NCBI RefSeq assembly: GCF_004010195.1
Contig: NC_057718.1
Location: 60,708,795 to 60,772,794, forward strand
Direction of reading: 5' to 3'
From: Chiloscyllium plagiosum
Lineage: Eukaryota
DNA: 64,000 bases
Shown here in pieces: positions 4,388-56,709 of this stretch. Below the pieces are notes generated by a model that was not told the DNA's origin, did not search any database, and saw nothing but the letters and a program-made list of their open reading frames with translations. Numbering within the stretch: the first letter of the stretch is position 1; each line of letters starts with the position of its first letter. The translations under genes were made by a program, and so were the position numbers.

Positions 4388-4680
4388 AAAGAAAGATTTA
4401 CAAGAATAGTGCCAAGGTTGGAGGATTTGAGCGAAAGGGAGAGGCTGAATAGGCTGGGGCTGTTTTCCATGGAGCGTCCGAGGCTGAGGGGTGACCTTAT
4501 AGAGGTTTATAAAATCATGAGGGGATTGGATAGGATATATAGACAAGGTCTTTTCCCTGCGATTGGGGAGTGCAGAACTAGAGGGCATCGGGTTAGGCAG
4601 AGAGGGGAAAATACATAAAGGGACCAAAAAGGCAAATTTTTCATGCAAGGGCTGGTGCGCGTCTGGAAGGAGCTGCCAGA
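4388..4680 (+). mobile_element. CR1/HER1-like LINE 3' fragment
   Basis: Peptide RFTRIVPRLEDLSERERLNRLGLFSMERPRLRGDLIEVYKIMRG is nearly identical to the copy at 26610-26800. Confidence 0.9.
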
Positions 4681-5322
4681 GGGTGCTCCGTGTGTGGAAA
4701 GAGCGACCGGTGTGTATGGAAGGAGCTGCCAGAGGGTGGTGCATGTATGGAAGGAGATGCCAGAGGGTGGTGCATGTGTGGGAGGAGCTGCTAGAGGGAG
4801 GCGTGTGCATAGAAGGAGCTGTCAGAGGATTGAGTGTTTATGGAAGGAGCTGTCAGAGGGTTGTGTGTGTATGGAAGGAGCTGTCAGAGGGTTGTGTGTG
4901 TATGGAAGGAGCTACGAGAGGGTGTTGCGTGTGTGGATGGAGCTGCCAGAGGGTGGTGAGTGTATGGAGTGAGTTGCCAGAGGATGGTGAGTGTATGGAG
5001 TATGCTGCCAGATGTGGTATGTGTATGGAGTGAGCTGCCAGATGGTGATGTGTGTGTGGAGTGAGCTGCCAGAGGGTGGTATCAGTATGGAGTGAGCTGC
5101 CAGATGGTGGTGTATGCATAGAGTGGGCTGTCAGAGGGTGGAGAGTGTATGGAGTGAGCTGCCAGAGGGTGGTGTATGGATTGAACTGCCAGACAGTGGT
5201 GTGTGTACGGAGTGAGCTGCCAGAGGGTGGTGTGTGTATGGAGTGAGCTGCCAGAGGGTGGTGTGTGTATGGAGTGAGCTGTCAGAGGGTGGTGTTTGTA
5301 TGGAGTGAGCTGCCAGAGGGAG
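4650..5322 (+). repeat. 31-bp minisatellite (about 21 units) derived from the CR1 3' region
   Basis: Unit ggagtgagctgccagagggtggtgtgtgtat; cagagggtgg recurs at 5221 and 5252; the array runs into the gap. Confidence 0.95.
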
Positions 5323-6130: not shown

Positions 6131-6960
6131 AGTTTATTCGGCTGTCCTTGTAACTCAACATGCACTTCGATTGTTGATTGTCATATGCTATACTCTTGTG
6201 CAGTGAAAGGGAAGACCTTGCCAGTGACAGACATAGAGGAACCACACTCCTCAGCTAATAAGGAGTACGTGTCAGAACCAGCCAGTCTGCAAGTTGGGGT
6301 TGTATTACTAGACATCGGGGCTACAGAGACATTCATGAGGGAGGGTCCTTAGTCCCTTTGTTCAACAAGTTCGAGCAAACATGAAGCCTCCGAGAAGCTG
6401 ACAGCTTGATCTTGGGGTACACCAATAGGATGTCTGCATCTCCATCGGACAGTGCACCACTACCTTCCAATAAGCCACTCCGTCCTTGTCATCCAAAATA
6501 TTGTCAGTCCTCCCCTTTCACCCATACAGACTTGCAACTTCTTCTGTATGTAATCCAGCTGCTAACCACATCTGAACAGACAGGCCAACACTGCACATGA
6601 ATAAAATGAACAAGACTGTTTGACCACACACACTGACAAACTGAAATATAACATTTAAACTATCATGCAGCCACATGTTCTTGCATTTGTTTTTGGTTAA
6701 TCCAGAGTGATAGCCCAACGTTTGGAGCTAAAAGGGGGACAGGCTGCTCAGTGTAATGATGTACTGCCTGAGACAGCCCCCTTGGTTGTTGTTTAGTAAA
6801 CCTTGGAGGGCCCTGATAGGTTCCTGTCTATGTCCAGGTGCATCACCTTTGACCTTGGTTACTCGAAGCACAGGTAGGGAGACTCCTAGAAGAAGGAGCC
6901 TTGCACTCTTCTCCCTTCATTGTGATGGAGTCTCCCTGACAACCAAAACAGGGCAAGGTC

Positions 6961-7121
6961 AGAAGTCACATGACACTAGGTTATAGTTGAACAAGTTTAT
7001 TTCAAATCACAAGCTTTCAGAGTACTGCACCTTCGTCAAGTGATTTCAAATAAACCTGCTGGACTATAACCTGATGTTGTGTGACTTTTGGCCTTCCTAG
7101 TCCAATGCCAGCATCTCCACA
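6961..7121. mobile_element. Penelope-like family B palindromic mini-element (degenerate hammerhead)
   Basis: Arms gtcacatgacactaggttatagt and actataacctgatgttgtgtgac are inverted; only the right arm has the tail agtccaatgccagcatctccaca; same family as 31377-31590. Confidence 0.8.
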
Positions 7122-8079
7122 CCAGTGAAGGAGATTAATAAAGGAGGGTGGTCCAGGGGTCTCAGCCCCTCTTTCTTGATCACTATGGCTCATGTCCAGA
7201 GAGTGATGGTCTATAAGGTCCAAGCACAAACTCAGCAGCTGTTAACTGGACTTGTGGACTCAGCTGTCACAGCACTTACCAACCTCTCCATGAAGGAAAT
7301 CAATGAGCTTGCCTACCAGAGACATGGCAGAACCTTTAGTTTGGATGAATTCTTGAATCATCCGTATCCTATCTTCACAATGTTTCTGCTACATCCACCA
7401 TACAGTCCACTGTCTGGCTCTTCATCTCCAGAAAGTTTTTTTATGTAGATGAACAAAGGCTAATAATCAATTCAAGGCTCAGCATGGGACTGACCTCTAA
7501 CAATTGTTTGATTGGCTTGGTCTATTACTGTCACAGCCTCTGTTAGCTGCTCTGGTGTCTGATGTTCTAACAGGTTCATGATCCTGGCTCAAGTCACAAT
7601 CATATCCCCATCAAGATGACGATATCTGCACTGGTGGATGGTTACAGAAGCGATGTGACAGTATGCCCTCAGAGGCATCCATATCCTCATCCTCAGAGAT
7701 GGACTGCAGGGTAAAGCCCTGATGAATTTGGCCATCCCTTCAGAAGTTAAGGACCTGCTCTAATGCATATTGATCACAATCTCTCTTCATATCCCTCTGA
7801 CACATACCTTCTTTCTGTTCAATAGTTGGTACCAAGCTCGAGGCCTCCTCACTCTCTTTTCACAGTCCGGCCTCATAGCCAACTATTGTGCTATCTTCCT
7901 CTCTGAACAATTTCACAGCCGTCTCCTCTGCGCATGCAAGTGTTTTTTTTTGTCAGACGCACATCTACATGTCTTTACACATTCATTGGCATAATGTGTA
8001 GACAGAAGGGGACGAGGCATTGTAGCATGGATGGCATCTAAGCTGCTTGTCATTATGTATTCCTTTAATAATTAATGTA

Positions 8080-12174: not shown

Positions 12175-12787
12175 AAGGCTACATGAGACAGACTTCAAAC
12201 AGAGCTTGCAACTCAAGACTGGGCATCCATGAGGTGTTGTGGGCTATCAGCCGCAACAGAATTTTACACCAGCACAATCTGCAACCTAAAGGCCTGGCAT
12301 AACCATCGCTCTGTGATTACCATCAAACTTGGGGATCAACCCTGGCTCAATGGAGAGTGCAGGAGGACATGCCAGGAGGGGGATGGGGCATATCTAAAAA
12401 TGAAGTGTCAACCTGCTAGAGCTGCAAAACAGAACTATGCGCATGCTAAATGGCATAAGTAGCAAGTGATAGACAGAGCTAATGGACCAGATTTAAGCTC
12501 TGCAGTCCAGCCACATCCAGTTCATGAATGGTCATGGAGGCTCCACAAATATCCCCTTCCTCAATAATGGGGGAGACCAATAGACCATTGCAAATAAAAA
12601 GGCCGAAGCATTTGCAAAAATCTTCAGTCAGAAATGTCAAGTGGCTGATTGATTTTGACCAGCTCCTGAGGTCAACCAGTAAAGATGCTAGATTTCAGTC
12701 AATTCATGTCACTCCATGTGATATCAAGAAATGGTGAGGCACTGGTTATTGTAAAGCCTATGGGCCCTGACAACATTCTGGTAATAG

Positions 12788-13428
12788 GCGGAAGTGGGTA
12801 CTGCAGATGCTGGAAATCAGAGTCAAGATTAGAGTGGTGCTGGAAAAGCACAGCAGGTCAGGCAGCATCCGAGAAGCAGGAAAAATTGATGTTGCACGCA
12901 AAAGCCCTTCATCAGGAATGAGACTGGGAGCCTCAGGGGTGGAGAGATAAATGGGAGGGGGTGGGCCTGGGGAGAAAGTAGGTGATAGGTGCAATAGGTG
13001 GATAAAGGTGGGGGAAAAGGTGATAGGTTGGAGAGAGAAGGGTGGAGTGGATTGGTGGGAAGGAAGATTGACAGGTGGGATAGGTCATGAGGATGGTGCT
13101 GAGCTGGAAGGTTGGAACTGGGGTAAGGTGGCGGGAGGGGAAATGAGGAAACTGGTGAAGTCCACATTGATGTCATGGAGTTGAAGTGTTCCAAGGCGGA
13201 AGATGAGGCATTCTTCCTCCAGGCGTCGGGTAGCAAGGAAGTGGCAGTGGACCAGGCCCAGGACCAGCATGTCCTTGGCAGAGTGGGAGGGGAAGTTGAA
13301 ATGTCCGGCCACGGGGAGTGGGGTTAATTGGTGCGGGTGTCCCTAAGATGTTCTCTGAAGCACTCTGCAGGAAGTCGTCCAGTCTCCCCAATATAGAGGA
13401 GACCACATCGGGAGCAACAGATACAATA
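12788..13428 (-). mobile_element. 5'-truncated Penelope-like element (family A): GIY-YIG C-terminus, 3' region and hammerhead-bearing terminal repeat
   Basis: Minus-strand VYCICCSRCGLLYIGETGR..FREHL and HFNFPSHS..RRLEEECLIFRLGTLQ; perfect 16-bp TSD aacattctggtaatag at 12772-12787 and 13429-13444; degenerate core ctgatgaagggcttttgcgtgcaa at about 12892-12915. Confidence 0.9.
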
Positions 13429-14970
13429 AACATTCTGGTAATAGTACTGGACACTTGTGCTCCATGACATGCTGCATCGACAGCCAAGCAGTTCCAGTAC
13501 AGCAGCAACAGTGGCATCTACTTGACAATGTGAAAAATTGCCCAGCTTTGTTCTGGACACAGAAATGATAAATCTAACCTAACCAATTACTGTCCCAACA
13601 GTCTACTTTTAATCATCAGTAAAATGAAGGAAGTTGTCATCAACAGTGCTATGTTGTAGCACATGCTGAGCAATAACTGGTTTAGTGATGCCCAGTTGGT
13701 GTTCTGACAGGGTTCATTCAGCTTCTGGCCTGAATGCAGCCTTGGTTCAAACAGAGATAACAGAGCTGAATTCCAGAGGTAAGGTGAGAGTGACAGCCCT
13801 TGACATCAGTGCCACAATTGACTGAGTGTGGCATCAAATAGCATTTGCAAAACTGGAGTCAATAGCAAATGTGGGAAAACGTTTTGCTGGTTAAAATCAT
13901 AGCTGACATATAGGAAGGTCATTACGGTTGGTTGGAGGTCCAGCAAGTCATTGCCAGGATATCTCTGCAGGAGTTCCTCAGGTTAGTTTCCTTGGCTGAA
14001 ACATCTTCACCTGCTTCATCAATGAACATCCTTCCATCATAAGGTCAGAAGTTGGATGTTCATTGATAATTGCACAATGTTCAGCATCATTTACAATGCT
14101 TCAGATATTCAAGCAGCCCATGTTCAAATGCAACAAGACCCTGGACAATATTCAGACTTGAGATGAAAACTGGTAACTAACACTCATGCTGCACAATAGC
14201 TATCTCCAATCCCTCACTATTAACATTCTGTGGATTGTCACTGACCAGAAACTCAACTGGACCAGCCATGTAAAGTTAGCGACAGTAAGAGCAGGCCAGA
14301 GGTTAGGAATCTTACAGTGAATAACTACTTTCTGACCTCCTATAAGACACAAGTCAGGAATGGAATGGAATACTTCCCACTTACCTGAATGAGTACAGAT
14401 CAGAAAACATTCAAGAAGTTTGCTGTCATCCAGGTCAAAAGCTGACGTGGTTAGCAGAACATCCACAAACATCCACCCTCTCCATCATCGATGCTTAATC
14501 ACAGCAGTGTATACCATCTACGAGATGCACTGCAGAAATTTACTAAAGATCCTCAGTCAGCACGTTTTAAAGCAATCATCACTTCCGTATAGAAGGACTT
14601 GAGCAGCAGATGCATAGGAATACCACCACTATCTGTGAGGATCTAAAATCTGGATTTAGGCTGTTGTCAGGAGCAACCATTTAATGCATGCTTTTACTAA
14701 TTACAAAATGGTTTCTTAATGCAAGTAACGTAAAATAACATAACAAAATGGCTTCTAGGAGCAATGGCATCTAACTTCGCTGAAAACTGCATTCCTGAAC
14801 TAACTGAAAGAGATTAACAAACAATGCCCTGTTCATAGTATAAATTAACTAAGCAAGATAGGACATTATTAAAGTATTCAAATTGGCATTGGAAACCAGG
14901 TGACAAGGGATGAAGACGCGAAACCAAGTTAGTTCCCAAGAAATATCATTGGCTTAATTTTGTGTCTTCT

Positions 14971-15110
14971 AGGAGAAAGTGAGGACTGCAGATGCTGGAG
15001 ATCAGAGCTGAAAAAGGCTCCTGAAGAAGGGCTCATGCCCAAAACGTCGATTCTCCTGCTCCTTGGATGCTGCCTGACCTGGTGCGCTTTTCCAGCAACA
15101 CATTTTCAGC
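14971..15110. mobile_element. Penelope-like family A inverted mini-element
   Basis: Inverted tail aggagaaagtgaggactgcagatgctggagatcagagctgaaaa, then forward ctgaagaagggctcatgcccaaaacgtcg; flanked by gcttaatttt(g/a)tgtct (14952 and 15109). Confidence 0.85.
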
Positions 15111-15257
15111 TTAATTTTATGTCTATTTGTCACATCATTTCTTATTATTGGATTAATTTTGCAATTAGGACTTCTGTTTCTTAAGAGACCTATAAAAAGT
15201 TGTCTGTGTTTTAAGATTGTGTGCAGCTTTTCCAGAGTACACAGAGGTGTTTAACCT

Positions 15258-17094: not shown

Positions 17095-17975
17095 TTATAG
17101 AGTCATAGAGTCTTGAGTCATACCGTGTTACGAAACTAAGCTAGTCCCACTTGCCTGCATTTGGCCCATATCCCTCCAAACTTTTCCTATTCATGAACTT
17201 ATCCAAATGTCTTAAATGTTGTAACTATACCCGCGTCCATCACATTCTCCAGCAGTTCTTTCCACACATGAATGACTCTATGTAAAAAAAAATTGTCCTT
17301 TTTTTAATCTTTCTCTTCTCACCTCAAAAATATGCTCCCTACTTTTGAACTCCTCCTCCCTAGGGAAAAGACTTGTATCATTTAGTTTATCTATGCCCCT
17401 TATGATCTTATACATCTCAATAAGGATAGCCCTCAACTTCCAAGGCTCCAGTGGAAAAAGTCCCAGTCTTTCCAATCTATTTTTATATCATAAACAGTCT
17501 ATTTCAGGCAACATCCTGGTATAAATCTTTTGTAAATCCTCTCCAGTTTAATAATATCCTTCCTGTAACAGGATAACCACAACTGTACATGTACTCCAGA
17601 AGAGACCTCACCAGTGTCTGCACAATGTCAACACTACATCCCAACTCCTATACTCAAAGATCTGAGCAATGAAAACAATCCTGCTATACGCCTTCTTAAC
17701 CACCCTGTCCAACCATGACACAAATTTCAAAGAACTATGCACCAGAAACCCAAGGTTTTGCAACATTATCCAAGGCCCTACCATTAATTGTACAAGTCAC
17801 GCCCTGGTTTGTATTACCAAAATGCAAAACCTTATAGTTATCCAAATTAAACTCCATTTGCCTCTCCTCAGCCTATTGACTCAATTGATCAAAATCTCCT
17901 TTTAATCTTAGATAATCTTCACTGTCCACTCTACCACAAATTTTACTGTCATCTGCAAACTTACGAACCATGACT
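17095..17975 (-). mobile_element. CR1/HER1-like LINE 3' fragment
   Basis: Minus peptide ERLGLFPLEPWKLRAILIEMYKIIRGIDK; tail tagagtcatagagtc at the left end. Confidence 0.85.
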
Positions 17976-24968: not shown

Positions 24969-25664
24969 TAATGACAATAACAAAACTAATAATAATAAAG
25001 CTACCTCCTCGTTTATAATGACAGTTACAGATCATTTTGTTTGGTAAGGACGGATGAAAAGTAATCATTTTATCCCGTATTGATATCATCGCTTTTTGGA
25101 CCCTATTCATACCCACACCTCTTTCACTCCCCTTTTACTATTACTGCATCCTTTGAAGACTTCTAGGTTCAATTTTATATTACCTACGAGTCTCTTCTCA
25201 GATTTTCTGCTTGCCTCTAATTTGTTTTTCACTTCCTCTGTGATCTTTATGCAACTTTACCTCTAAAGTTCAGAAACTGGGAATTAAAATGGACACAATC
25301 TCACATGGAATCCAACACAGTTATTGAGAATTTTATGCAAAACTGTTTTAATTAAATTATGCATTTCCTCTCAGATAGTCATTTAGAGATCACTGTAGCT
25401 CTCTTAGGAATGATCTTCTACCAAGATTCCCTTTACTTGGTTCACTGGGACTGTTTTGTCTTCCTTTTTGAGGACTTTTGCATGGAATATTTTCAGAGGA
25501 TTACATACAGAATGCAATGTTGAATGAGCTCATCTTCAATTCGCTATATAGTGAATTCCATATACTGTACCAATATCTGGGGGAAGGGATGTTCAAAGAT
25601 AGTCGCCATTCTTAAAAGTAAGATGCAGTTTGGCAATGTTTAGCTCTCAGTCCCTGCCAAAATG

Positions 25665-25845
25665 ATGTGGAGGAGTTGGTGTTGGATTGGGGTGGACAAA
25701 GTTAAAAATCGCACAACACCAGGTTATAGTCCACCAGGTTTTTTTGGGAGCACTAGCTTTTGGAGCACTGCTCCTTCACCAGGATGCTCGTGCTTCCAAA
25801 TAAACCTGTTGGACTATAACCTGGTGTTATGTGATCTTTAATTTT
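25665..25845. mobile_element. Penelope-like family B palindromic mini-element
   Basis: Tail plus arm acaacaccaggttatagtcc, then inverted arm ggactataacctggtgttatgtg; hammerhead on minus strand is mutated. Confidence 0.85.
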
Positions 25846-26364: not shown

Positions 26365-27088
26365 GCTCAGGAGTGTTGCTGAACAAAAAGACCTTGCAGT
26401 AGAAAGTAGAGTCCTTGAAAGTAGAGTCACAGGTAGATAGGATAGTGAAGAAGGTGGTTGGTATGCTTTCCTTCATTGGTCAGAGTACAGGAGTTGGGAG
26501 GTCATGTTGCGGCTGTACAGGACATTGGTTAGACCACTGTTGGAATATTGCGTGCAATTCTGGTCTCCTTCCTATCAAAAAGATGTTGTGAAACTTGAAA
26601 GGGTTCAGAAAAGATTTACGAGGATGTTGCCAGGGTTGGAGGATTTGAGATTTAGGGAGAGGCTGAACAGGCTGGGGCTGTTTTTCCTGGAGCGTGGGAG
26701 GCTGAGGGGTGACCTTATAGAGGTTTACAAAATTATGAGGGGCATGGATAGGATAAATAGGCAAAGTCTTTTCCCTGGGGTCGGGGAGTCCAGAACTAGA
26801 GGGCATAGGTTTAGGGTGAGAGGGGAAAGATATAAAAGAGACCTAAGGGGTAATTTTTTCACACAGAGGGTGGTACATGTATGGAATGAGCTGCCAGAGG
26901 AAGTGATGGAGACTGATACAATTGCAACATTTGAAAGGCATCTGGATGGGTATATGAATAGGAAGGGTTTGAAGGGATATGGGCCGGGTGCTGGCAGGTG
27001 GGACTAGATCAGGTTGGGATATCTGGTCGGCATGGACAGGTTGGACCAAAAGGTCTGTTTCCGTGCAGTACATCTCTATGACTCTATG
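26365..27088 (+). mobile_element. CR1/HER1-like LINE 3' end (young, open C-terminal ORF 26504-27007)
   Basis: LYRTLVRPLLEYCVQFWSP...FFTQRVVHVWNELPEEV; 3' tail ctctatgactctatg. Confidence 0.95.
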
Positions 27089-27273
27089 GCTACCTCATCA
27101 TTCCACAACAATAATGAATAAACGTATTTCTTTGGAGAGCTACCAATAAATATTGTCAATTCAATTATATATTCATAGTTGAACTCAGCTTCAGATTACA
27201 AAATGGAATACTTTAAATATTCATAAAATCACAATTTTTAACTGAAGCAAACTATATAGTTAATCCAGATTAT

Positions 27274-28424: not shown

Positions 28425-29400
28425 ATAGAGTTATAAAGTCATACAACACGTAAACAGACATTATGGCCCAAGCAGTGTGCTGACCATAATCCCAAGCTAA
28501 ACTAGTCCCACCTGCCTGCACTTGGCCCATATCCTTTCAAACATTTCTTATTCGTGTCATTGTCTAAATGTCTTTTAACATTTGTAACTGTACCCCCTTC
28601 CACCACTTCCTCTGGAAGTTCATTCAACACATGAACCATTCTCTGTCTAACCATTCTCTCATGGCTTTTTAAAGCTTTTCTTTCTCACTTTAAAAATATG
28701 CCTCTAGTCATGAAAACCCTCACTCTAGTGAAAAGACACCTGTCATTCACCTTATCCATACTCCTCAAGATTTATAAAGTTCGATAAAGTCACCTCTCAA
28801 ACTCCTACACTCCAGTGAAAAATGTCCCAGCCTATACAGCATCTCTTTATAACTCAAACTCTCTATTCCCTTTAAACATCCTGATAAATCTCTTCTGACC
28901 CCTCGCCAGCTTAATAATATCATTTCTCTAACAGGGAGACCAGAACTTAACACAGTACTCTAAAAGAGGCCACCCTAACGTCCTCTACAATCTCAAAATG
29001 ATGCCCCAACTCCTTTACTCAAAGGTCTGAGCAATAAAGGCAGGTGTGAGATGCATCATCTTAACCATCTTATTTATATGTGATACAAACTTCAAAAAAA
29101 CTATGTACCTGAATCCCTAGGTCTTTTCTGTACTGCAATACAGAAGGCCCCACTTTTAATTGTATAAGTCTTGCCTTTCTTTGTTTTACTAAAATTCAAT
29201 ACTTTGCATGCAACCAGTTGAACTCCATCTGCCATTCTACAGCCCATTGACCCAACTGATCAAGATCTCTGTAATCTTAGATAACCTTCTTCACTGTCCA
29301 CTATCCAACCAATCTTGGTGTCATCCACAAACTTACTAACCATGCTTCTATGTTTGCATCTAAGTCATTTATTTCAATGATAAACAAAAGTGGACTGAGT
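28425..29400 (-). mobile_element. CR1/HER1-like LINE 3' fragment
   Basis: Minus peptide LSYKEMLYRLGHFSLECRSLRGDFIELYK; same structure as 17095-17975. Confidence 0.85.
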
Positions 29401-31099: not shown

Positions 31100-31210
31100 C
31101 TTCAGTTCCGAAGAAGGGTCATTGGACTCAAAACATTAACCCTGCTTTCTCTCCATGGATGCTGACCAGATCTGTTGAGTTTCTCCAGAAATTTCTGCCT
31201 TTGTTTGCTT
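31100..31210 (+). mobile_element. Older Penelope-like terminal repeat (family C) with decayed hammerhead
   Basis: ccgaagaagggtcattggactcaaaacattaac then gatgctgaccagatctgttgagtttctccag; related remnants at about 3225-3310, 33420-33515 and 49580-49690 (minus). Confidence 0.55.
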
Positions 31211-31376
31211 CAGGAAATAAGTTACTCAGCACAGAATTGCCAGCCCCTGACCTGCTCCTGCAGTTACCTTTCTGGTCAATTGCAACCTCCATGATTTGGT
31301 AGTGGGGGATTCAGTGATAGTAACACAATCAGATGTCAAGGGCATGTCATATCCAGGAATTATATGATATTCCTGA

Positions 31377-31590
31377 TTTGGAGATGCTGGTGTTGGAGAG
31401 GGGTGTACAAAGTTAAAATCACACAACACCAGGTTATAGTCCAACAGGTTTATTTGGAAGCACTAGCTTTTGGAGCGCCGCTCCTTCATCAGCTGGTTGT
31501 CACCTGATGAAGGAGCAGCGCTCCGAAAGCTCGTGTTTCCAAATAAACCTCTTGGGACTGTGACCTGGTGTTGTGTGATTTTTAACTTTG
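31377..31590. mobile_element. Penelope-like family B palindromic mini-element
   Basis: About 85-bp inverted arms around ctggttgtcac; tail on the left arm only; TSD tat(g/c)atattcctga at 31363-31376 and 31591-31604. Confidence 0.9.
31501..31535 (+). ncRNA. Minimal type I hammerhead ribozyme, intact core (family B)
   Basis: cac CTGATGA a GGAGC agc GCTCC GAAA gctc | gtg: stem I cac/gtg, 5-bp stem II, palindromic AGCT stem III, CUC cleavage triplet. Confidence 0.85.
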
Positions 31591-32139
31591 TATCATATTC
31601 CTGACTTTCAAGGTAAAGATTTTGTGCAAAATGGACTTCTGAAATGTATGCCTACACACATGCTAAGGTTTAAGTGTCCCTTTGTGATTTCTACTTAAAC
31701 AAAATTCAGGACTCTGGGTTGTTCTTTGCATGTACATAGCCATGTCTGCACCACCCTCCCACTCAAGATATGAAACTACTAGCTAATTTACACCTCCTAC
31801 TGACTGGATATTTACTGAAACTCAAAATCAATAGTTCAATGTCTGCAAATAATACACTTATCAAAGAGGAGCACAGAGAAACCAGTTTATCACAAGTAGG
31901 TGTGGACAGTCACCATTTGTATCCCATTGTGTAGCAACAGCTTTTAACTTTGAATCATTTATGTCAACTGTAGATCATGACCTCATTGGCCAAAGACCAT
32001 AGAACATTCTAGAATGATGAGTGTGAAGGGCATTAAAGCACACATACCTGGAAGCCAGCCCCTTATTGAAGAGGCAGTGAAGCATCAGTGAAGATTTGCA
32101 GCAAAGACTTACAGCAACACTTGTTGCAGAAGACTATAT

Positions 32140-32421
32140 TCTGGATTAGTGGTGCTGGAAGAGCACAGCAGTTCAGGCAGCATCCAAGGAGCAGTGAAAT
32201 CGACGTTTCAGGCAAAAGCCCTTCATCAGGAATAAAGGCAGTGCTGATAAGCTCTAGCTTATCTCTCCATGCTTCAGGCTCACTGTCTTTATTCCTAATG
32301 AAGGGTTTTGCCTGAAACGTCGATTTCGCTGCTCCTTGGATGTGGCCTGAACTGCTGTGCTCTTCCAGCACCACTAATCCAGAATCTGGTTTCCAGCATC
32401 TGCAGTCATTGTTTTTACCTC
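32140..32421. mobile_element. Penelope-like family A palindromic mini-element
   Basis: About 105-bp inverted arms, about 37-nt tail on the right arm only; perfect 14-bp TSD gcagaagactatat at 32126-32139 and 32422-32435. Confidence 0.92.
32198..32233 (-). ncRNA. Minimal type I hammerhead ribozyme, intact core (family A)
   Basis: Minus strand attc CTGATGA a GGGC tttt GCCT GAAA cgtc | gatt; palindromic ACGT stem III, GUC triplet. The partner copy at 32295 (+) has CTAATGA. Confidence 0.8.
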
Positions 32422-33224
32422 GCAGAAGACTATATGGCAACCCAAGGACACCTAGGAGAAGGTATGCCCTGACCCACCTTCATGGAAGAGAGCCTGCCCT
32501 ACATCAGAAAAGGAGATTCCAACAGTCCAGCTCAAACACGTAAATCATTGGGTTATATCCTTTCCCAAATGAATAGAGCTAGACAGAGAGTAAATATTGT
32601 GGCAATTTCAGAAGTGCCCCCGATAGTGTTTTAATAAGGAATATTTTGTTAATAAAATCAAGTTGAACTTCAAATTCTATGTCCCGTTATCCAGGTCACC
32701 AACAAAAGCATTTGAGTAAATTGTTTTTAATATATAAACTGGTTGAAGTATCCAAAGCATGGACAACACGATTATACAATTACAAACTCTACAATGTTAT
32801 CTCTATGCAAAAGTTACATTTAGTCACTTGCTTCACTTCTAAGACAAATTAAAGTAATACCAGGGCAATCGTACAGGTGTGACCACAATTTCTTGATAAG
32901 GGCTCCTAATGAGCTAAGGAAATCTCAACACTGCTTTAGGCAACTTTGAAGCCTGAATGTTAAATGCAAATAAGGCCCCTTGACCTTGTAGCTATCTTCC
33001 CAAAACGTCAGTGTTTTGTCTTCACTCTCTTCCCATGATGCATTTCTTTGTCAAGTGAGGCTAAGCAAAGTCACATGATATTAACAAACTAAAATCTGCG
33101 TTGGTTACAGCTAAGCAGAATAATACAACATTAGATTAATCAGTGCATATGCTTTCTGTGTTTACAGCTAAACTTAACCAATTATCAAATGCTACTCTTT
33201 CTACTAATCCTACAACAGAGAAGG

Positions 33225-33360: not shown

Positions 33361-34069
33361 CCCTACAACAGCCTATGTTTTAAAAACAATCATTTCCTTT
33401 AATATCAGCGCAAGAAACAGCACTGACAAAGGGTTACTGGATCCAAAATATTACCTCTGTTTTCTTTCCACAGGAGCTGCTAGAACTGTTGGGTTTCTCC
33501 AGCAATTTCTGTTTTGGGTGTTGAGTGTTCATGCGGTAGGATCTTCCTGTTCTGCAACTCTTAGAGAATTTAGTGTTCAAAATATCTTGCAGTCTATTCT
33601 GGTATAGTTGGATGTAGATTGCAAAACAAATAATCTAAAGACAAAATTTGAATTTACTGCTGACCAAGCAATGAATGGAAATGAAAAAAGCTTCAGCCTC
33701 CAGTTTCCTCTAGTTGTGCCTATGAATGTGTTGGTAGCTCATCCTGAAAATGTGATAGGGTTCAACTTCCAAATCCTGGTGATCCACAAATCTTTCAGTT
33801 CAGGCTTGCACTGCCTTTGCAATGTCGAGGGATAGCCCAAAAATCCCCCACTAAGAGCTTCCTGACATGAAGTGGGGTATGATTTATTGATGATCTGTGA
33901 CTATCACACCATGATACTTGTATTACTTCTCATAATAAGGACGGGATGTGGGTCTCATTGTTTTGAAGAATTCAATGAAGTTTTATTACACTGATATTGA
34001 TATATGCAAACCACAATCTCAGGCAATTGCATATCTGAGCTCAAGCAAATTGGATGTATGGCAGTTGGT

Positions 34070-34912
34070 TCAAAATCACACAACACCAGGTTATAGTCCA
34101 ACAGGTTTATTTGGTAGTACCAGCTTTTGGAGCACTGCTCCTTCATGAAGTAGCTAGTGGAGCAGGATCACCGGATACATGAGTTATAGCAAAAGATCAT
34201 AGTGTCATACAACTGATGTGATATATTGGACAAACCTAGATTGCTGTTGTCTTGCATCTTTTAGAATGGGCTGCGTGTGTACGTGTGCGCACACACACAC
34301 AAACGCACGCGCGCACACACACAAACACACACACTCTCTCTCTCTCTCTCTCTCCCTGACATACACACGCGCACACATACAAGTCTATGGGGTGAATTTG
34401 ATTTGTAGAATTGTAGTTGCAAATACATTATACTTTGTTCAAAAAGCACACGATCTGTTGGGAGTCAATCCATATGAATTTTATAGATTCCTACTTTGGA
34501 ACTAGAACCAGTCTGACTCAAGATTGGAATACATACAGACTCTAACCTCACAACTTCAATGCATTGTCTGAGCTGAGATGCCACCTTTTTTTATAAAACC
34601 TTAAGTTTTCTCTGGAATGTGACTTGAAAGAAGTTCTGAGATTTACATATTAATGAATCAAAATCTGCAACCCATTCTAAAAGATGAAAGACTTAACAGC
34701 AATTTAGGTTTGTTCAACATATCGTTTCAATTGCATGACACTGGGATCTTTTGCTATAAATTTTGTGTCCTATGATCCTGCTCCACAGCTACCTGATGAA
34801 GGAGTAGTGCTCTAAAAGCTGGTACTATCAAATAAACCTGTTGAACTATAACCTGGTGTTGTGTGATTTTTAACTTTGTCCAACCCAGTCCAACAACGGT
34901 ACCTCCACATCA
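34070..34912. mobile_element. Longer Penelope-like family B element with about 200-bp inverted arms and an internal microsatellite
   Basis: 34072-34272 is the reverse complement of about 34666-34870; decayed hammerhead ctgatgaaggagtagtgctctaaaagct near 34793; possible degenerate TSD (12/16 match) at 34054 and 34912. Confidence 0.85.
34275..34380. repeat. Compound (CA)n/(CG)n/(TC)n microsatellite
   Basis: Directly visible dinucleotide runs. Confidence 0.9.
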
Positions 34913-36473
34913 TTTATAGCATTAGGTCACATGCTATGGTATGGTGTTGGTTTCACAAGCTTTTTCCTTAAAGGTATATTAGGCACCTGCTGCAAGACCT
35001 CGCATAACATTTTCCACCAATGGCATTACCCTAACTGCTGTAAAGAGTTTAAAGACTTAGACTTGATTTCAATGTCCTTCGTTGTTCATGTAGCCGAGAC
35101 AAATAAAAAATGATATATCACTGCTACAGCTTACAGCTCAGTCACTGACTGAGTTTTGTCTTGGTTGTCTTGTTATTTTAAAACGAGTTGAATGAACTGC
35201 CATTCATAATCTTTCATAGAACCTGGATGCTTTCTTGACTCAGAGGGTGTATCTATGATCAACTTCATTACACAGATGTTTTCATGTGGGTTTCTGTATC
35301 TGAGTATTCACAATTCTTCCTTCATGAATCGAAACACTAGTCATCTAAGCCAGTAAATCCAAACATTTTGATTATGTAGAGACATCTGTTCAAAATTACA
35401 GTATGAATTTTAGAATTTCTCAAAATACTGCATTGTCAAAGATGGAGTCCAGTCTTCACAAAATATATCAGTAAATCCATCAATAAACCAATTGTTAGTA
35501 AACCAATGCATAATAATACATAATACATACAGGCTTCCAGTTTATTCTCTCCTTTCATGAGCAAGAGTCTTAAGTTGATAAGAAATTTCAATGATAAACT
35601 TTGCAAAGGGCATTAGCAACTGATAAAACAACAAGAGAAAATTTTTGATAAATGTCAAATGTGTTGATAACATTGCAAATTGCAATTATCAGGTTATATT
35701 AATTTTTTAAATATTGAAATGTTTAAGGCTGAGAACTGAAATTGACCATTGTTAAGTGGGTGCTGAAATACTTACTTTCACCTTTCCTGACTGCAGCTAA
35801 GGAATTCTTTAACGTATACTCAGTTTCTATAAACCATGTTGGGTGGGTGAGAACAGAAACCAGTTGTCAAGGACAAAAACATCTTGGGTTGATGGGGTCA
35901 GGATTGGAATCCTCTGACCCCGATTAATGGAGAGACGTGAGGTATTTATGGCTCCACCTCGACTTTTAGCTACCAGGATAGAGCCGCTGAGAACTTGGTT
36001 CATGTGGAAATTTGTTGCTCAGTACGTTAATTCATTTTAATCCTACTACACACCACCCCATGTTTTAGACACAACCCAGGCATTAAAGATATGGGAATCT
36101 CTCTGGCAAGGTTTTCAAAAGTAAAACTTGGACTTTTCGCCCACAAACTTTATTACTTTATAAGACAAATCAAATGCCTGAATTAACTTTTTTTATTGTT
36201 GATTGCGCATATATGCAAATATGATATCAATGGATATATGATGCATTTGTAAAATTTTTCTGGCTGTAGCAGAGAACAAAATACAATTCTATCAAATAAA
36301 ACCTTAGCATTAGAAGGTAATCTTTGTGCACATCGCTGGTGGGTACTATCATTGATCTGTAATGATTTTGCTTAGGGCTGAGAGACTCCAGATCAATCGC
36401 TGGGTCAGTCCAAATAATCAGATTCTATTAAAATCACTGAAGTCACCCTGTAACCTGCCAAACTTGAACAAGT

Positions 36474-36660
36474 AGGAGAAAGTGAGGACTGCAGATGCTG
36501 GAGATCAGAGCTGAAAAATGGAGGGAGGGCTTATGCCCGAAACGTCGATTCTCCTGCTCCTTGGATGCTGCCGAAGGGCTTATGTCCGAAACGTCAATTC
36601 TCCTGCTCCTTGGATGCTGCCTGACTTGCTGCGCTTTTTCAGCAACACATTTTTCAGCTC
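36474..36660. mobile_element. Penelope-like family A inverted mini-element with tandem partial hammerheads
   Basis: Inverted tail followed by two tandem agggcttatg(c/t)ccgaaacgtc units lacking the CTGA part of the core; perfect 15-bp TSD caaacttgaacaagt at 36459-36473 and 36660-36674. Confidence 0.92.
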
Positions 36661-38939
36661 AAACTTGAACAAGTCGAAAGGTCAGTAATGACTAGAAATG
36701 ACATGTCTACAACACTGAAATTACAGGTACAGTGTCTCAAAACTAGCATCACTAGGACCAAGTCAGGGTTGGATTTTAGATCTTTCCAGTTTTGAGGGTA
36801 AGAAAATGAAACCTTTACTAGATTAATAGGAATTACATAAAATCACCTGAATCAGTTTATTTGTATTAAAGTTTGCAAAAAAAATACATAATAGAAAAGG
36901 AATAACACTTTTAAAAATACAAACAACGTGACAAGGAAAGCACATGGTTTCCCAGGCTGCGCTAGATTCAAAGCATGGATGTTCTAAGCAGCGTCAAGGA
37001 TTGTTCACACCACTGGATGCATGTGAAAATGCTGGCCCGCAAACTCACTGACTCATCCGGCACGCCACCATGCCAATGGCAACACCTGACAAGAATTGCT
37101 CCAGCAAATTATTTTTGTCATTTGATATCAATTCACATTGGAGGATGGAACTTATATGAATGTTTAGCTAACTCCAGTTTTCAGATAGTCAAACTTGTGA
37201 CACTGTACTTCTATTATTAAAAATAACATTATCTTCCATGAAAGAATGATTAGAGATGAAAAGTCTGTTTATTCATGGGACATGGTGTCATCAGAAAAAT
37301 CAGCATGTATTGATTAATTCCATTTGTGGTTTAATATATGGTAATCTATATGACATAAACTTGTGTTTTCTTGAGTCAGAAATCTTGAAGTTTATTTTTA
37401 CAACACTAACTACTAGCAAGGCTACAATATGCACACAAACAGTCTGAGTCTTGTGCTTACTGATGCTAAAGTATTTTTGCACATATATAACTGTCTCACT
37501 GAAGACTGCAGTCATTCCATTCGACTGATAGAATTACTGAAGATGGTGAAACATAACATCATGATGTCATGGCAGTGTATAGGCCTGACTGTTCTTAGGA
37601 TATGGTGATGGTGATGAATTGCCTTCTTGAATACAACTCAATAAATTTCAAAGGGCAGATAAGATTTAACCAAGTTACTGTGTTCTGGAATCACTTGTAG
37701 GCCAGGGTATGTAAGTAACTGACAGATATTTGTGAACTAGATGGGCTTTTACAATAATCCAATACATGCATTGTCATCATTATTGATATCAGTCTTTTAT
37801 TCCATTATACATTTAATTAATTGCTTTTAAATTTCCAGTTACAATGATAACATTTGAACACATGGATCAATCATTAATTGAGGACTCTGAATATTAGTTC
37901 AGTAACATACTAAGATACCACACACCTGCAAAGCTCTCCAACACCACCGTTACCCCTTTCAGTGGGATCATTTTAAAATGCTTGTTTAGTCTTAAAGTCA
38001 ACTATTGATCATTTTGATTATTGGATTAATTTATTGTCACCCTAACAAAGTACTACTGAATACCATCCATATAGGGAATATATTATGCCTCTTATTAGTC
38101 TCAATTACTGACAAAATGATGTACAGACAGGGTCATTGTAGTTATGAGTCCCTTCAGGCTTCATTAAAACTGGAAACATTGGACATTTCCTCATTAGTAA
38201 CAGTCTCCAAACCAACTAATAAGTTACTTGCTTGCTGAGATTTGAAGTGGGAAGGCGATTAATTCGCATGATGATCGATATTGCAGTTACTGTTAAAGCT
38301 TCTATGTAATGGGGAGACAACTTTACTCGTCTCAACTTCATGCTTGCCCACAACTGAGACTCAGACTGATTACTGTCAGAAATGCAAGCTGTGAATGTTA
38401 GAAACTTTCAAGCTCAGAACATTTACTAATTTCTTTAATGAGTTTTCTTGCACAGTTAATTGCTGGAAATGTTAGATCTGAGTCAAACTTCATATTATGA
38501 TCGAAAGCAGGCAATAGTTCTTTGTCACTTCAACTTACGTAATACTTTATTGAAATATTTATTTGAATGAATAATTTGGGTTATACAATTGGGGCTGGTT
38601 GCCTACGTTTGAATTCTTACCTTAGATGAGATTTGTCTATCGGTATGGCCCTGAGGTATGCTTTCTACAAGGTTGAGGGAGGGTTTCTGGATGGACGACT
38701 CAGAAGAAAGTCTTTTAATAGTTTTACGCATCTAACAACTGACCTAATTAACCAAGTGGCTGTCTGTTAGACAGGATATCAACAAAGAAAGTGTAGGCAG
38801 AAAGGAAGAGATTATGAACAGTGATGGGTGTAGAATCAGATCGGGATTGAGTAATGGGAGATGGTCGTTGAGGGGAAAAACCATGTAAGCAAAAATCCAG
38901 AGATTGTTGAAATCACAGAGAGAGAGTTCCAGGATGGCC

Positions 38940-39505
38940 AGTTATAGAGTCATACAGAACAGAAACATTCATTTCGGTCCAACCTGTCCATGCCAATCAA
39001 GCATGGTCTGGAGTAAACTAGGCCCATTTGACTGAATTTGGCCCATATCCTTCTAAACCTTGCCAATTCAAATCAGTTTCTATCCAAATTCTTTTAAATG
39101 TTGTAACTGTACCTGCGTCTACCACTTCCTCTGGCAATTCATTCCAGAGACCAACCTTTGTGTGAAATGGTGCCCCTCAGGTCCTTTTTAAATCTTTCTC
39201 TTCTCATCTTAAAAATATGCCTCTTAAATTTGAACATCCTCACCCCAGGAGAAAGATCTTTGCTATTCACCTTGTCTATATCCCATATACTTTTATAAAC
39301 CTCTATAAGATCACTGCTGAATCTCCTGTGCGCCAGTAAAAAGTAAGTTCCAGCCTATTCGGCTCTCCCTAAAACTTAAACTTCCTGTCTCAGTAACATT
39401 CAGGTAAATCTTTTCTGAACCCTCTTCAGTTTAATAATATCCTTGTTATAGCAAGGCAACCTGAACCGTGCACAATACTCCTAAAGAAGCCTTACCAACA
39501 TCTCC
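38940..39505 (-). mobile_element. CR1/HER1-like LINE 3' fragment
   Basis: Left end gttatagagtcatacag; colinear with the other minus CR1 copies. Confidence 0.85.
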
Positions 39506-39819
39506 AGCATGCTTTGTTCATCCCCAATTTACCTTTGAACTGAATAGCTTGAGTTAATCATATTACCGTGGGTCTGGAATCACACATTGCCGAGGTTAGG
39601 CAAGTGTGGCACATGTTTGCACTGTAGGATGTCATTTTTATGGAAGTTGATGCTAGTTTCATGTTCATCATTGCCCAAGACTAGATTTTGTTTCCAGAAT
39701 TATTAATTGAATTTAAATTCTACTACTGCTGCAGTGAGATTCAAAACTTTGTTCCCACAGCATTAACATGTGGCTTCTGGATTATGAGGTGAGCGATCTT
39801 ACCACTACATCATTGTCTC

Positions 39820-40756: not shown

Positions 40757-41115
40757 GGTCAGTGATTTGGATCTGTCTTAAGAAGCTAGGCAGGTCAGAC
40801 AAGTCCAGACAAGTCATGGGGACAGTGATGAGCTGGAAGTTTGAAACTAGGATGAGGTGAGGGAAGGGGAAATGAGGAAACTGTTGAAGTCCACATTGAT
40901 GCCCTGGGGTTGAAGTGTTCCGAGGCGGAAGATGAGGCGTTCTTCCTCCAGGCGTCTGGTGGTGAGGGAGCGGAGGTGGAGGAGGCCCAGCACCTCCATA
41001 CCCTGGGCAGAGTGGGAGGGGGAGTTGAAATGTTGAGCCACGGGGCGATTTGGTTGATTGGTGCGGGTGTCTCAGAGATGTTCCCTAAAGCGCTCTGCTA
41101 GGAGGCGCCCACTCT

Positions 41116-47439: not shown

Positions 47440-48362
47440 CACAGATGACACTAAAACTGGAGGTGTGGATTGCAAAGAAGGTTACCTCAGATAACAATGG
47501 GATCTTGATCAGATGGGCCAGTGGGCTGAGGAGTGGTAGATGGAGTTTAGTTTAGATAAATGCAAGGCGCTGCATTTTGGGAAAGCAAATCTTAGCAGGA
47601 TTCATATACTTAATGGTAAGGTCCTAGGAAGTGTTGCTGAATAACGAGACCTTGGAGTGCAGGTTCATAGCTCCTTGAAAGTGGAGTTGCAGGTGGATAG
47701 AATAGTGAAGAAGGCTTTTGGTATGCTTTCCTTTATTGGTCAGAGCGTTACGCATAGGAGTTGGTAGCTCATGTTGTGGCTATGCAGGACATTGATTAGG
47801 CCATTTTTGGAATATTGTGTGCAATTTTGGTCTCCTTCCTATCAGAAGGATGTTGTGAAACTTGAAAGGGTTCAGAAAAGATTTACAAGGATGTTGCCAG
47901 GGTTGGAGGCTTTGAGTTATAGGGAGAAGCTGAATAGGCTGGGGTTGTTTTCCCTAGAGTATCAAAGGCTGAGGGGTGATCTTATAGTGGTTTATTAAAT
48001 CATGAGGGGCATGGATAGAATAAATAGACAAAGTCTCTTTCTCTGGAGTGGGGAGTCCTTAACTAGAGGGCATAGGTATAGGGTGAGAGGGGAAAGATAT
48101 AAAAGGGACCTAAGGGGCAACATTTTCATGTAGATGGTATGCGTGTGTGGAATGAGCTGCCAGAGGGAGTGGTGGAGGCTGGTACAATTACAACATTTAA
48201 AAGGCTTCTGGATGGGTATATGAATAGGAAGGGTTTGGAGGGATATGGGCCAAGTGCTGGCAGGTGGGACTAGATTAGATTGGGATATCTTGTAAGCATG
48301 GACAAGTTGGACCAAATGGTCTGTTTCCATTGTGTACATCTCTATGACTTTATGACTCTATG
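47440..48362 (+). mobile_element. CR1/HER1-like LINE 3' 0.9 kb
   Basis: DDTKTGG start; LIRPFLEYCVQFWSPSYQKDVVKLERVQKRF; tail ctatgactttatgactctatg; inserted into the tail of another LINE. Confidence 0.95.
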
Positions 48363-56009: not shown

Positions 56010-56325
56010 AGTTGTCTTTTCTCAAGGTTGGGGGATTTCAAGACAAGGGGGCACATTTTTAAGGTGAGAGGAAAGAGATTTTATAAAGACGTGAGGCAAT
56101 TTATTTTACACACAGGATGGTTCACATGTGGAATGAACTTCCTGAGAAAGTGGTGGATGTGGGTACAAATACAACATTTAAAAGACATATGGATAGATAT
56201 ATGAATATGAAATGTTTGGAGGGATCTGACCAGAAGCAGGCAGGCGGGACTAGTTTAGTCTGGGATTATATTCAGCATGGACTGGCTGGACCGAAGGGTC
56301 TGTTTCCATGCTGTATGACTCCGTA
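56010..56325 (+). mobile_element. CR1/HER1-like 3' fragment
   Basis: VHMWNELPEKVVDVGTNTTFKRHMD and tail ggaccgaagggtctgtttccatgctgtatgactc. Confidence 0.88.
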
Positions 56326-56709
56326 ACCCTTCCCTTATGAATATCTTTTTCCCAGACCCAAATAGACATAGGTTTTGAAAGGAGCCAATTTAACCAGACA
56401 TTCTTGAATTAACAAAAAGAGTGAATTTCTGAATTATTAAATGCAAAAGGAAACGGTATTGTAGTGCATATATACACTGCTTAGAAATAAGAGATGAGTC
56501 CAAAAATGTGAAAGTTAAAAAATAGATTTATGGATCAGTCTCTGAACTGTTTGCAAACAGTAAATAGTTGAACTTTGCAGAGAGTGTTACCAGTAAATGT
56601 GGTGCTGGTAGTTGAACAGCCAATTTCAAGATTCTGGCTTTGTAGAAAGTAGAAAGTCTTTACTCCTGGTTCCTTTTGGCAGTGGTGACTGGTAGCTCTC
56701 AGAATTAGA

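Follow-up and report, generated by a model that had tools for sequence, protein, structure and literature searches.

The question raised by the locus at 31377-31590 of the window (the whole 64,000-nucleotide stretch of Chiloscyllium plagiosum contig NC_057718.1 analysed here, numbered from its first letter) is what a short palindrome with a hammerhead ribozyme motif on each strand represents, and how it came to be inserted. An earlier note on this DNA had left the choice between an abortive insertion of a Penelope-like element (PLE) and a non-autonomous, retrozyme-like unit. In the following, "focal element" refers to the palindromic insertion at about 31377..31590, and "focal family" to its hammerhead-bearing family of PLE ends. 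We propose that the focal element is very probably a dead-on-arrival insertion of an endonuclease-bearing (EN+) PLE, in which both end copies were cut very short.

Layout of the palindrome and its target site duplication

The focal element is composed of two inverted arms flanked by a target site duplication (TSD), with the following features:

31363..31376, + strand: left copy of the TSD, identical to 31591-31604 at 13 of 14 positions; its final 3 nt overlap the tail end
31374..31405, - strand: AC-rich tail of 32 nt, unmirrored and present in the left arm only; 824-894 contigs per run stop at 31374
31374..31500, - strand: left arm, the tail-bearing PLE end (3' part of the pLTR), 5'-truncated 8 nt upstream of hammerhead C3
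31449..31454, - strand: AATAAA; poly(A) addition in family RNAs follows 12-15 nt further on (31437, 31434)
31461..31495, - strand: decayed minimal type I hammerhead, in which G12 is now A (31471, a CpG) and the base at 31493 disrupts the innermost pair of stem I
31500..31501: head-to-head junction, apparently blunt, with 0 bases in common with the family continuation of either arm
31501..31535, + strand: minimal type I hammerhead, core intact, scissile bond 31532/31533
31501..31592, + strand: right arm, the tail-less PLE end, beginning 3 nt upstream of C3
31542..31547, + strand: AATAAA of the right arm, intact
31591..31604, + strand: right copy of the TSD; its initial 2 nt overlap the tail-less end

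The inverted arms (31406-31495 and 31501-31592) are identical at 82 of 90 aligned bases with 2 gaps, and the RNA hairpin has a folding energy of -140.8 kcal/mol (z -17.5), equalled by none of 200 shuffles; the palindrome recognized in the earlier note is therefore far beyond chance. Its description as nothing more than two mirrored terminal repeats was wrong, because the tail of the left arm has no counterpart in the right arm and the element is asymmetric. The left arm aligns to -8..+119 relative to C3 of the copy at 34.9k, and a tail on one arm recurs in the insertions at 25.7k, 34.9k, and 7.1k.

The duplication reported as a 14-bp TSD is present, with 13 of 14 positions matching. Since the ends of the element overlap it (3 nt at the left copy, 2 nt at the right), its length is better given as 9-14 bp and that of the insert as 214-219 bp. 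When 3000 random sites of the same span were scored with the ends fixed to ±3, none had more than 10 matches; with a slack of ±14, the score was tied by 1 of 294 random sites. From this TSD we infer a single insertion event.

Hammerhead motifs and their predicted folding

The + strand motif reads, in order, CUGAUGA, an extra A, a 5-bp stem II starting with G-C, GAAA, and GCUC. All the features of a minimal hammerhead are found in 31504-31532: CUGANGA, the extra base, G10.1-C11.1, GAAA, a palindromic 15.2-16.2, and NUH. Its stems are located as follows:

31501-31503/31533-31535, + strand: stem I (CAC/GTG)
31512-31516/31520-31524, + strand: stem II (5 bp)
31528-31531, + strand: stem III (AGCU), loop-less

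Stem I has just 3 pairs because its outer part was removed by the junction, and the motif cannot fold as a monomer because stem III is a loop-less AGCU palindrome. What had been called a fully intact hammerhead is thus intact in its catalytic core, its cac/gtg stem I, its 5-bp stem II, and its CUC triplet, and falls short in the loop-less stem III and the 3-pair stem I. At the Rfam gathering score no match was obtained in the window.

The change from GAAA to AAAA noted previously in the - copy is real, and a second lesion, at 31493, had been missed. Position 31493 is a C in the focal element and a G in about 96% of the aligned contig depth (264,202/276,562, run X2); in the same run G12 at 31471 is retained in 67% of the aligned depth. 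The G12 change is common to four of the six arms in the window that span the core, as expected of CpG decay. In stems I and II of eight arms, 89% of cells are paired, a value not above that of shuffles, and one compensated pair (C-G to U-A) occurs in both arms of one insertion. The tailed arm has a CUA triplet and the tail-less arm a CUC triplet (31464 and 31532), and the 25.7k element shows the same distribution (n = 2).

Four + strand RNAs modelled to start at or before 31480 gave a probability of 0.000 for stems I and II, and two starting at or after 31495 gave 0.66-0.99. Forcing the hammerhead fold in the full focal RNA costs 39.8 kcal/mol, and two-strand MFE folding did not yield a hammerhead dimer. 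The models predict that in any RNA crossing the focal element the mirror arm sequesters the + hammerhead, which is most likely unable to cleave here, since a second same-sense copy would be needed, none is present in cis, and the motif is paired to the mirror arm. The available text of PMC4209133 reports no detectable cleavage in vitro for a single minimal hammerhead motif and low activity for dimers. The earlier expectation of a long hairpin is borne out by prediction, although "competing" with the ribozyme fold is too mild a word for a hairpin predicted to exclude it. Folding without protein may mislead, because the hammerhead studied in PMC11167929 required protein for cleavage. No pile-up of molecule ends (5'-OH ends) was listed among the RNA reads, which come from a poly(A) single-cell library unsuited to such ends.

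Related insertions in the window

Three further insertions of the focal family are present in the window:

6951..7125: head-to-head sibling stub that belongs to a more distant subfamily, with a 3-nt GTG overlap at the centre
25663..25845: sibling head-to-head stub, arms starting near -1 and +25, with 2 extra nt at the centre
34068..34912: long-armed sibling, whose tail-less arm (207 bp, inverted, from -126) is fused to about 640 bp of 3' body, which terminates in the tail

All four insertions are arranged head to head, with an inverted 5'-truncated copy and exactly one tailed arm. Relative to C3, the two arms start at -8/-3, about -1/+25, about -3/+29, and -126/below -393, so that four of four centres differ; overall, arms start anywhere between +35 and positions beyond -393. 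Alignment placed 17 arm starts, ten of them at -10 to +3 of C3, a clustering also shown by solo copies (an arm bounded by Ns, two stubs consisting of the tail alone, and three internal pieces are not among the 17). Within the focal element the two arms differ at 6 positions in 52 nt, and each differs from other copies at 2-9. The focal element is the only one of the four with a clear TSD.

Two of the siblings have peculiar starts. The tailed arm of the 7k element begins no more than 3 nt from the predicted cleavage site (7040-7042), with GTG overlapping at its junction; this single example would fit a template that had been cleaved. In the 34k insertion, the main copy starts inside a (CA)n/(CT)n microsatellite that belongs to the body of the element (34275-34380), a possible stall point.

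The head-to-head layout recurs in a second hammerhead family of the window, together with duplications of 10-16 bp and a GIY-YIG-like remnant. Two of its members are the following:

32140-32421 (32126-32435 with duplications): second-family stub with a one-sided tail, a perfect 14-bp TSD, and a short central palindrome, 550 bp from the focal element
12785-13428 (12771-13444 with duplications), - strand: solo 5'-truncated second-family PLE with a perfect 16-bp duplication

The solo copy at 12785-13428 contains a decayed GIY-YIG-like reading with a YIG motif, whose Pfam E-value of 0.069 lies below the cut-off for a match. This was the one weak match in a Pfam search with nine shorter second-family frames. 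The peptide encoded at 40871-41071 matched, with a score of 0.91, an Atlas cluster of which 15% of the members are GIY-YIG. Two more second-family insertions (14952-15124 and 36459-36674) have an inverted part that extends little beyond the tail (38 bp), with duplications of 16 bp (1 mismatch) and 15 bp, and the one at 36.5k carries two tandem partial hammerhead arms. Over both families, duplications of 10-16 bp (10, 14, 14, 15, 16, and 16) flank 6 of 12 insertions; the other six have none beyond chance.

Elsewhere in the window, a tandem satellite-like array (4650-5322) adjoins an N gap, and decayed multi-copy fragments occur at 17133-17972, 26372-27091, 28425-29344, 38940-39510, 47442-48361, and 56010-56327, which resemble 3' ends of CR1/L2-type LINEs.

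Copies in public contigs and RNA reads

Four runs were aligned to 31100-31520: contigs of organisms A, B, and C, and raw RNA reads of A. The aligned stretch extends from the left flank across the left arm into the first 20 nt of the right arm, and exact sharing of the junction is not countable from the alignments. Between 50,556 and 66,877 contigs per run were matched, which marks the focal family as very high in copy number with many different joints. Ten of the best 15 of 266 joints listed connect arms head to head, at positions that differ from one joint to the next and with a support of 0-5 contigs per run for each. Past 31500, the sequence of 310 contigs in X2, 348 in X18, and 514 RNA reads leads into the body of the element, starting with GGAG where the focal junction has CACC; among the copies listed no joint dominates, and most of those reaching 31500 enter body sequence. 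At least five listed contig pieces from other loci span the focal junction in a similar register, with 12-17 mismatches and 0-7 gaps. None of the listed contig pieces of organisms B and C spans the border between the focal flank and arm, and no empty site was seen among them. Divergence between subfamilies, instead of genuine truncation, may account for the position of some joints. Joints that go back from 31447 to 31415 reach a summed depth of 494 in run X2 and 1208 in run X7; this pattern suggests that the end of the pLTR has given rise to a tandem unit of about 36 bp. Pattern scans of viral, metagenome, and prokaryote genome contigs gave no match.

Of the 3609 aligned RNA reads, drawn from 2% of one poly(A) single-cell run, 108 match at 99% identity or more, and most come from other loci. 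The unique flank bins of the focal locus have an RNA depth of 0-1 and so give no sign of its transcription, a weak test at 2% of one run. A T-run is found at 31434 in 912 and at 31437 in 684 of the 3609 aligned reads, 15 and 12 nt past the AATAAA, and the focal-family end therefore appears to act as a poly(A) site. A GU-rich tract follows the AATAAA of the pLTR (31434-31454, - strand), and 1596 of 3609 reads end in poly(A) 12-15 nt on. Our literature search found nothing centred on a PLE end as a poly(A) site.

Identity of the focal element

Layout features of EN+ PLEs are present here, i.e., an inverted 5'-truncated copy, a one-sided 32-nt tail, a TSD that varies in length over the two families, and variable 5' truncation. 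The available texts of PMC8557442 and PMC8969392 give an inverted 5'-truncated copy and a 30-40-bp tail as standard features of PLEs, and that of PMC3846280 describes PLE units with an inverted pLTR, a 31-bp tail, and an 8-10-bp TSD. The focal element resembles the EN+ units in the accessible parts of PMC3846280 and PMC8557442 in its head-to-head inverted end, its tail at one end, a TSD of about 10 bp, and strong 5' truncation. It differs from the longer-bodied EN+ examples in those texts in that its copies are cut to the hammerhead edge with no ORF or 3' UTR left, and its TSD of up to 14 bp compares with 8-10 bp in the rotifer PLE (PMC3846280, as available). Very short PLE insertions are common according to the available text of PMC9977147, with a median of 128 bp in Chlamydomonas. 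The hammerheads agree with the PLE minimal motifs in the consulted portion of PMC4209133 in the extra base between 9 and 10.1, G10.1-C11.1, the palindromic 15.2-16.2, the lack of loop 3, and the short stem I. The same portion places opposite-strand minimal hammerheads about 100-700 bp apart in Schistosoma, whereas the focal cores are about 10 bp apart, with a 5-bp stem II and a 3-bp stem I. The focal element is thus the published PLE layout at its smallest size.

Membership in the PLEs is argued from layout and motif, since no focal-family ORF combining RT and GIY-YIG is present in the window. No focal-family ORF of any kind was found there, and a Pfam search of six read-through frames over 28-42 kb, insensitive on decayed frames, gave no match. 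The tail, the TSD, the minimal hammerhead, and siblings of the same layout with long bodies support the earlier suggestion of an abortive PLE insertion. In a literature search outside which subscription papers and supplements lay, no paper devoted to such stubs in sharks was found; the supplements of published work may already list these motifs in cartilaginous fish.

Several other identities were weighed against the PLE stub. The element might be a non-autonomous palindromic unit, transcribed and re-inserted in trans by a PLE enzyme with its junction kept. It has a TSD as well as both cis ends, the available text of PMC3846280 states that sequence can be mobilised in trans by PLE ends, and the contig pieces that cross the junction in a similar register would fit. 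This is improbable nonetheless, given that all four centres in the window differ, that no joint dominates and most listed copies at 31500 run into the body, and that RNA depth in the unique flank bins is 0-1, weak as that test is. The same junction check, with its four different centres in the window and many joints in public contigs, tells against the self-propagating unit considered in the earlier note. There is likewise a slim chance that a minority lineage has been re-mobilised as a hairpin RNA of about 215 nt with the junction preserved, i.e., as a hairpin retro-MITE. Such a unit, if true, would combine both PLE cis ends, an antisense arm locking the ribozyme, and a poly(A) signal in each direction.

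Cycling through a self-cleaved circular RNA, as in the animal non-LTR retrozymes, is still harder to credit. The focal element shares with them its small size (214-219 bp), the absence of coding capacity, the type I hammerhead, and an origin from PLE ends (PMC7229834 and bioRxiv 10.64898/2026.07.22.740005, as far as available; the latter derives such units from PLE ends). However, the available text of PMC7229834 describes retrozymes as tandem direct repeats with canonical hammerheads that yield circular RNA, while the focal element is an inverted pair with a minimal, sequestered motif. Because its two motifs lie on opposite strands, no RNA holds two sense ribozymes to free a monomer, and neither same-sense tandem repeats nor a stem III loop is found in it. 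The inverted pair, the minimal loop-less motif, and the differing centres do not bear out the retrozyme-like unit. The resemblance of the focal element to terminal inverted repeats could point to a DNA-transposon MITE, and the long forms represented by the 34k sibling to a rearrangement after insertion, by inversion or by loss of the central part of a longer inverted pair, as can happen in long palindromes. We nevertheless give this group little credence in view of the asymmetric ends, variable duplications, common solo arms, and variable centres, and a later central deletion is made less likely by arm starts that gather at the hammerhead edge in solo copies as well. The asymmetric ends and variable duplications exclude a MITE; it was ruled out on the one-sided tail, the four different centres, and TSDs of up to 14 bp here and 10-16 bp in the second family.

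How both ends may have been copied

For the PLE stub, we propose the following route. The element endonuclease would make a staggered double cut leaving 3' overhangs, and each 3' target end would prime reverse transcription, the first at the end of the tail and the second at the tail-less site, 32 nt further in, with overlaps of 3 nt and 2 nt between target and template at the two priming sites. Both cDNAs would stop at the 5' edge of the hammerhead and then be end-joined. The + hammerhead would be an inherited passenger, and the - copy would have decayed since. Each arm is the first-strand copy expected of its own target end, and within the PLE reading we consider priming from both ends to be, by a modest degree, the probable step. 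L1 twin priming offers a parallel, as both target ends prime cDNA and an inversion results inside the TSD; it inverts adjacent, non-overlapping parts of one RNA, whereas in the focal element one segment was copied twice. A purified PLE protein, PAc (Poseidon, Anolis carolinensis), cuts and extends both target strands in vitro, and it initiates reverse transcription at two sites, which delimit the tail (PMC11167929), as proposed here. That study differs in reporting priming without target homology and no joined head-to-head products, while the focal element overlaps its target by 3 nt and 2 nt.

A PLE stub could also have gained its mirror arm by fold-back and self-priming of the cDNA, with the hairpin then resolved by the endonuclease at the tail-less site. 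The available text of PMC3846280 interprets head-to-head repeats that have palindromes at their junctions as products of self-priming, the focal junction becomes a perfect stem with a 5-nt loop once the family base is restored at 31493, and the short palindrome at the centre of the second-family element 32140-32421 looks like a fold-back. We regard this step as possible but doubtful, since the family sequence behind 31500 offers no bases for pairing back, and the similarity between the two arms does not exceed their similarity to other copies, although decay blurs that comparison. The CUA triplet on the tailed arm and CUC on the tail-less arm, in the focal and 25.7k elements, hint at two templates (n = 2); together with the divergence of the arms, this contrast leans weakly towards two templates and so to the priming of both ends.

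Conclusions

The focal locus alone matters little. As a class, PLE stubs are a fossil record of the PLE insertion mechanism, and their tens of thousands of junctions could discriminate between dual-end priming and fold-back and show what sets the 5' end. The risk of misannotation raised in the earlier note is genuine, for the focal element looks like a pair of terminal inverted repeats and such stubs can be annotated as MITEs. As an apparent poly(A) site in host RNA, the focal-family end may shape 3' ends genome-wide.
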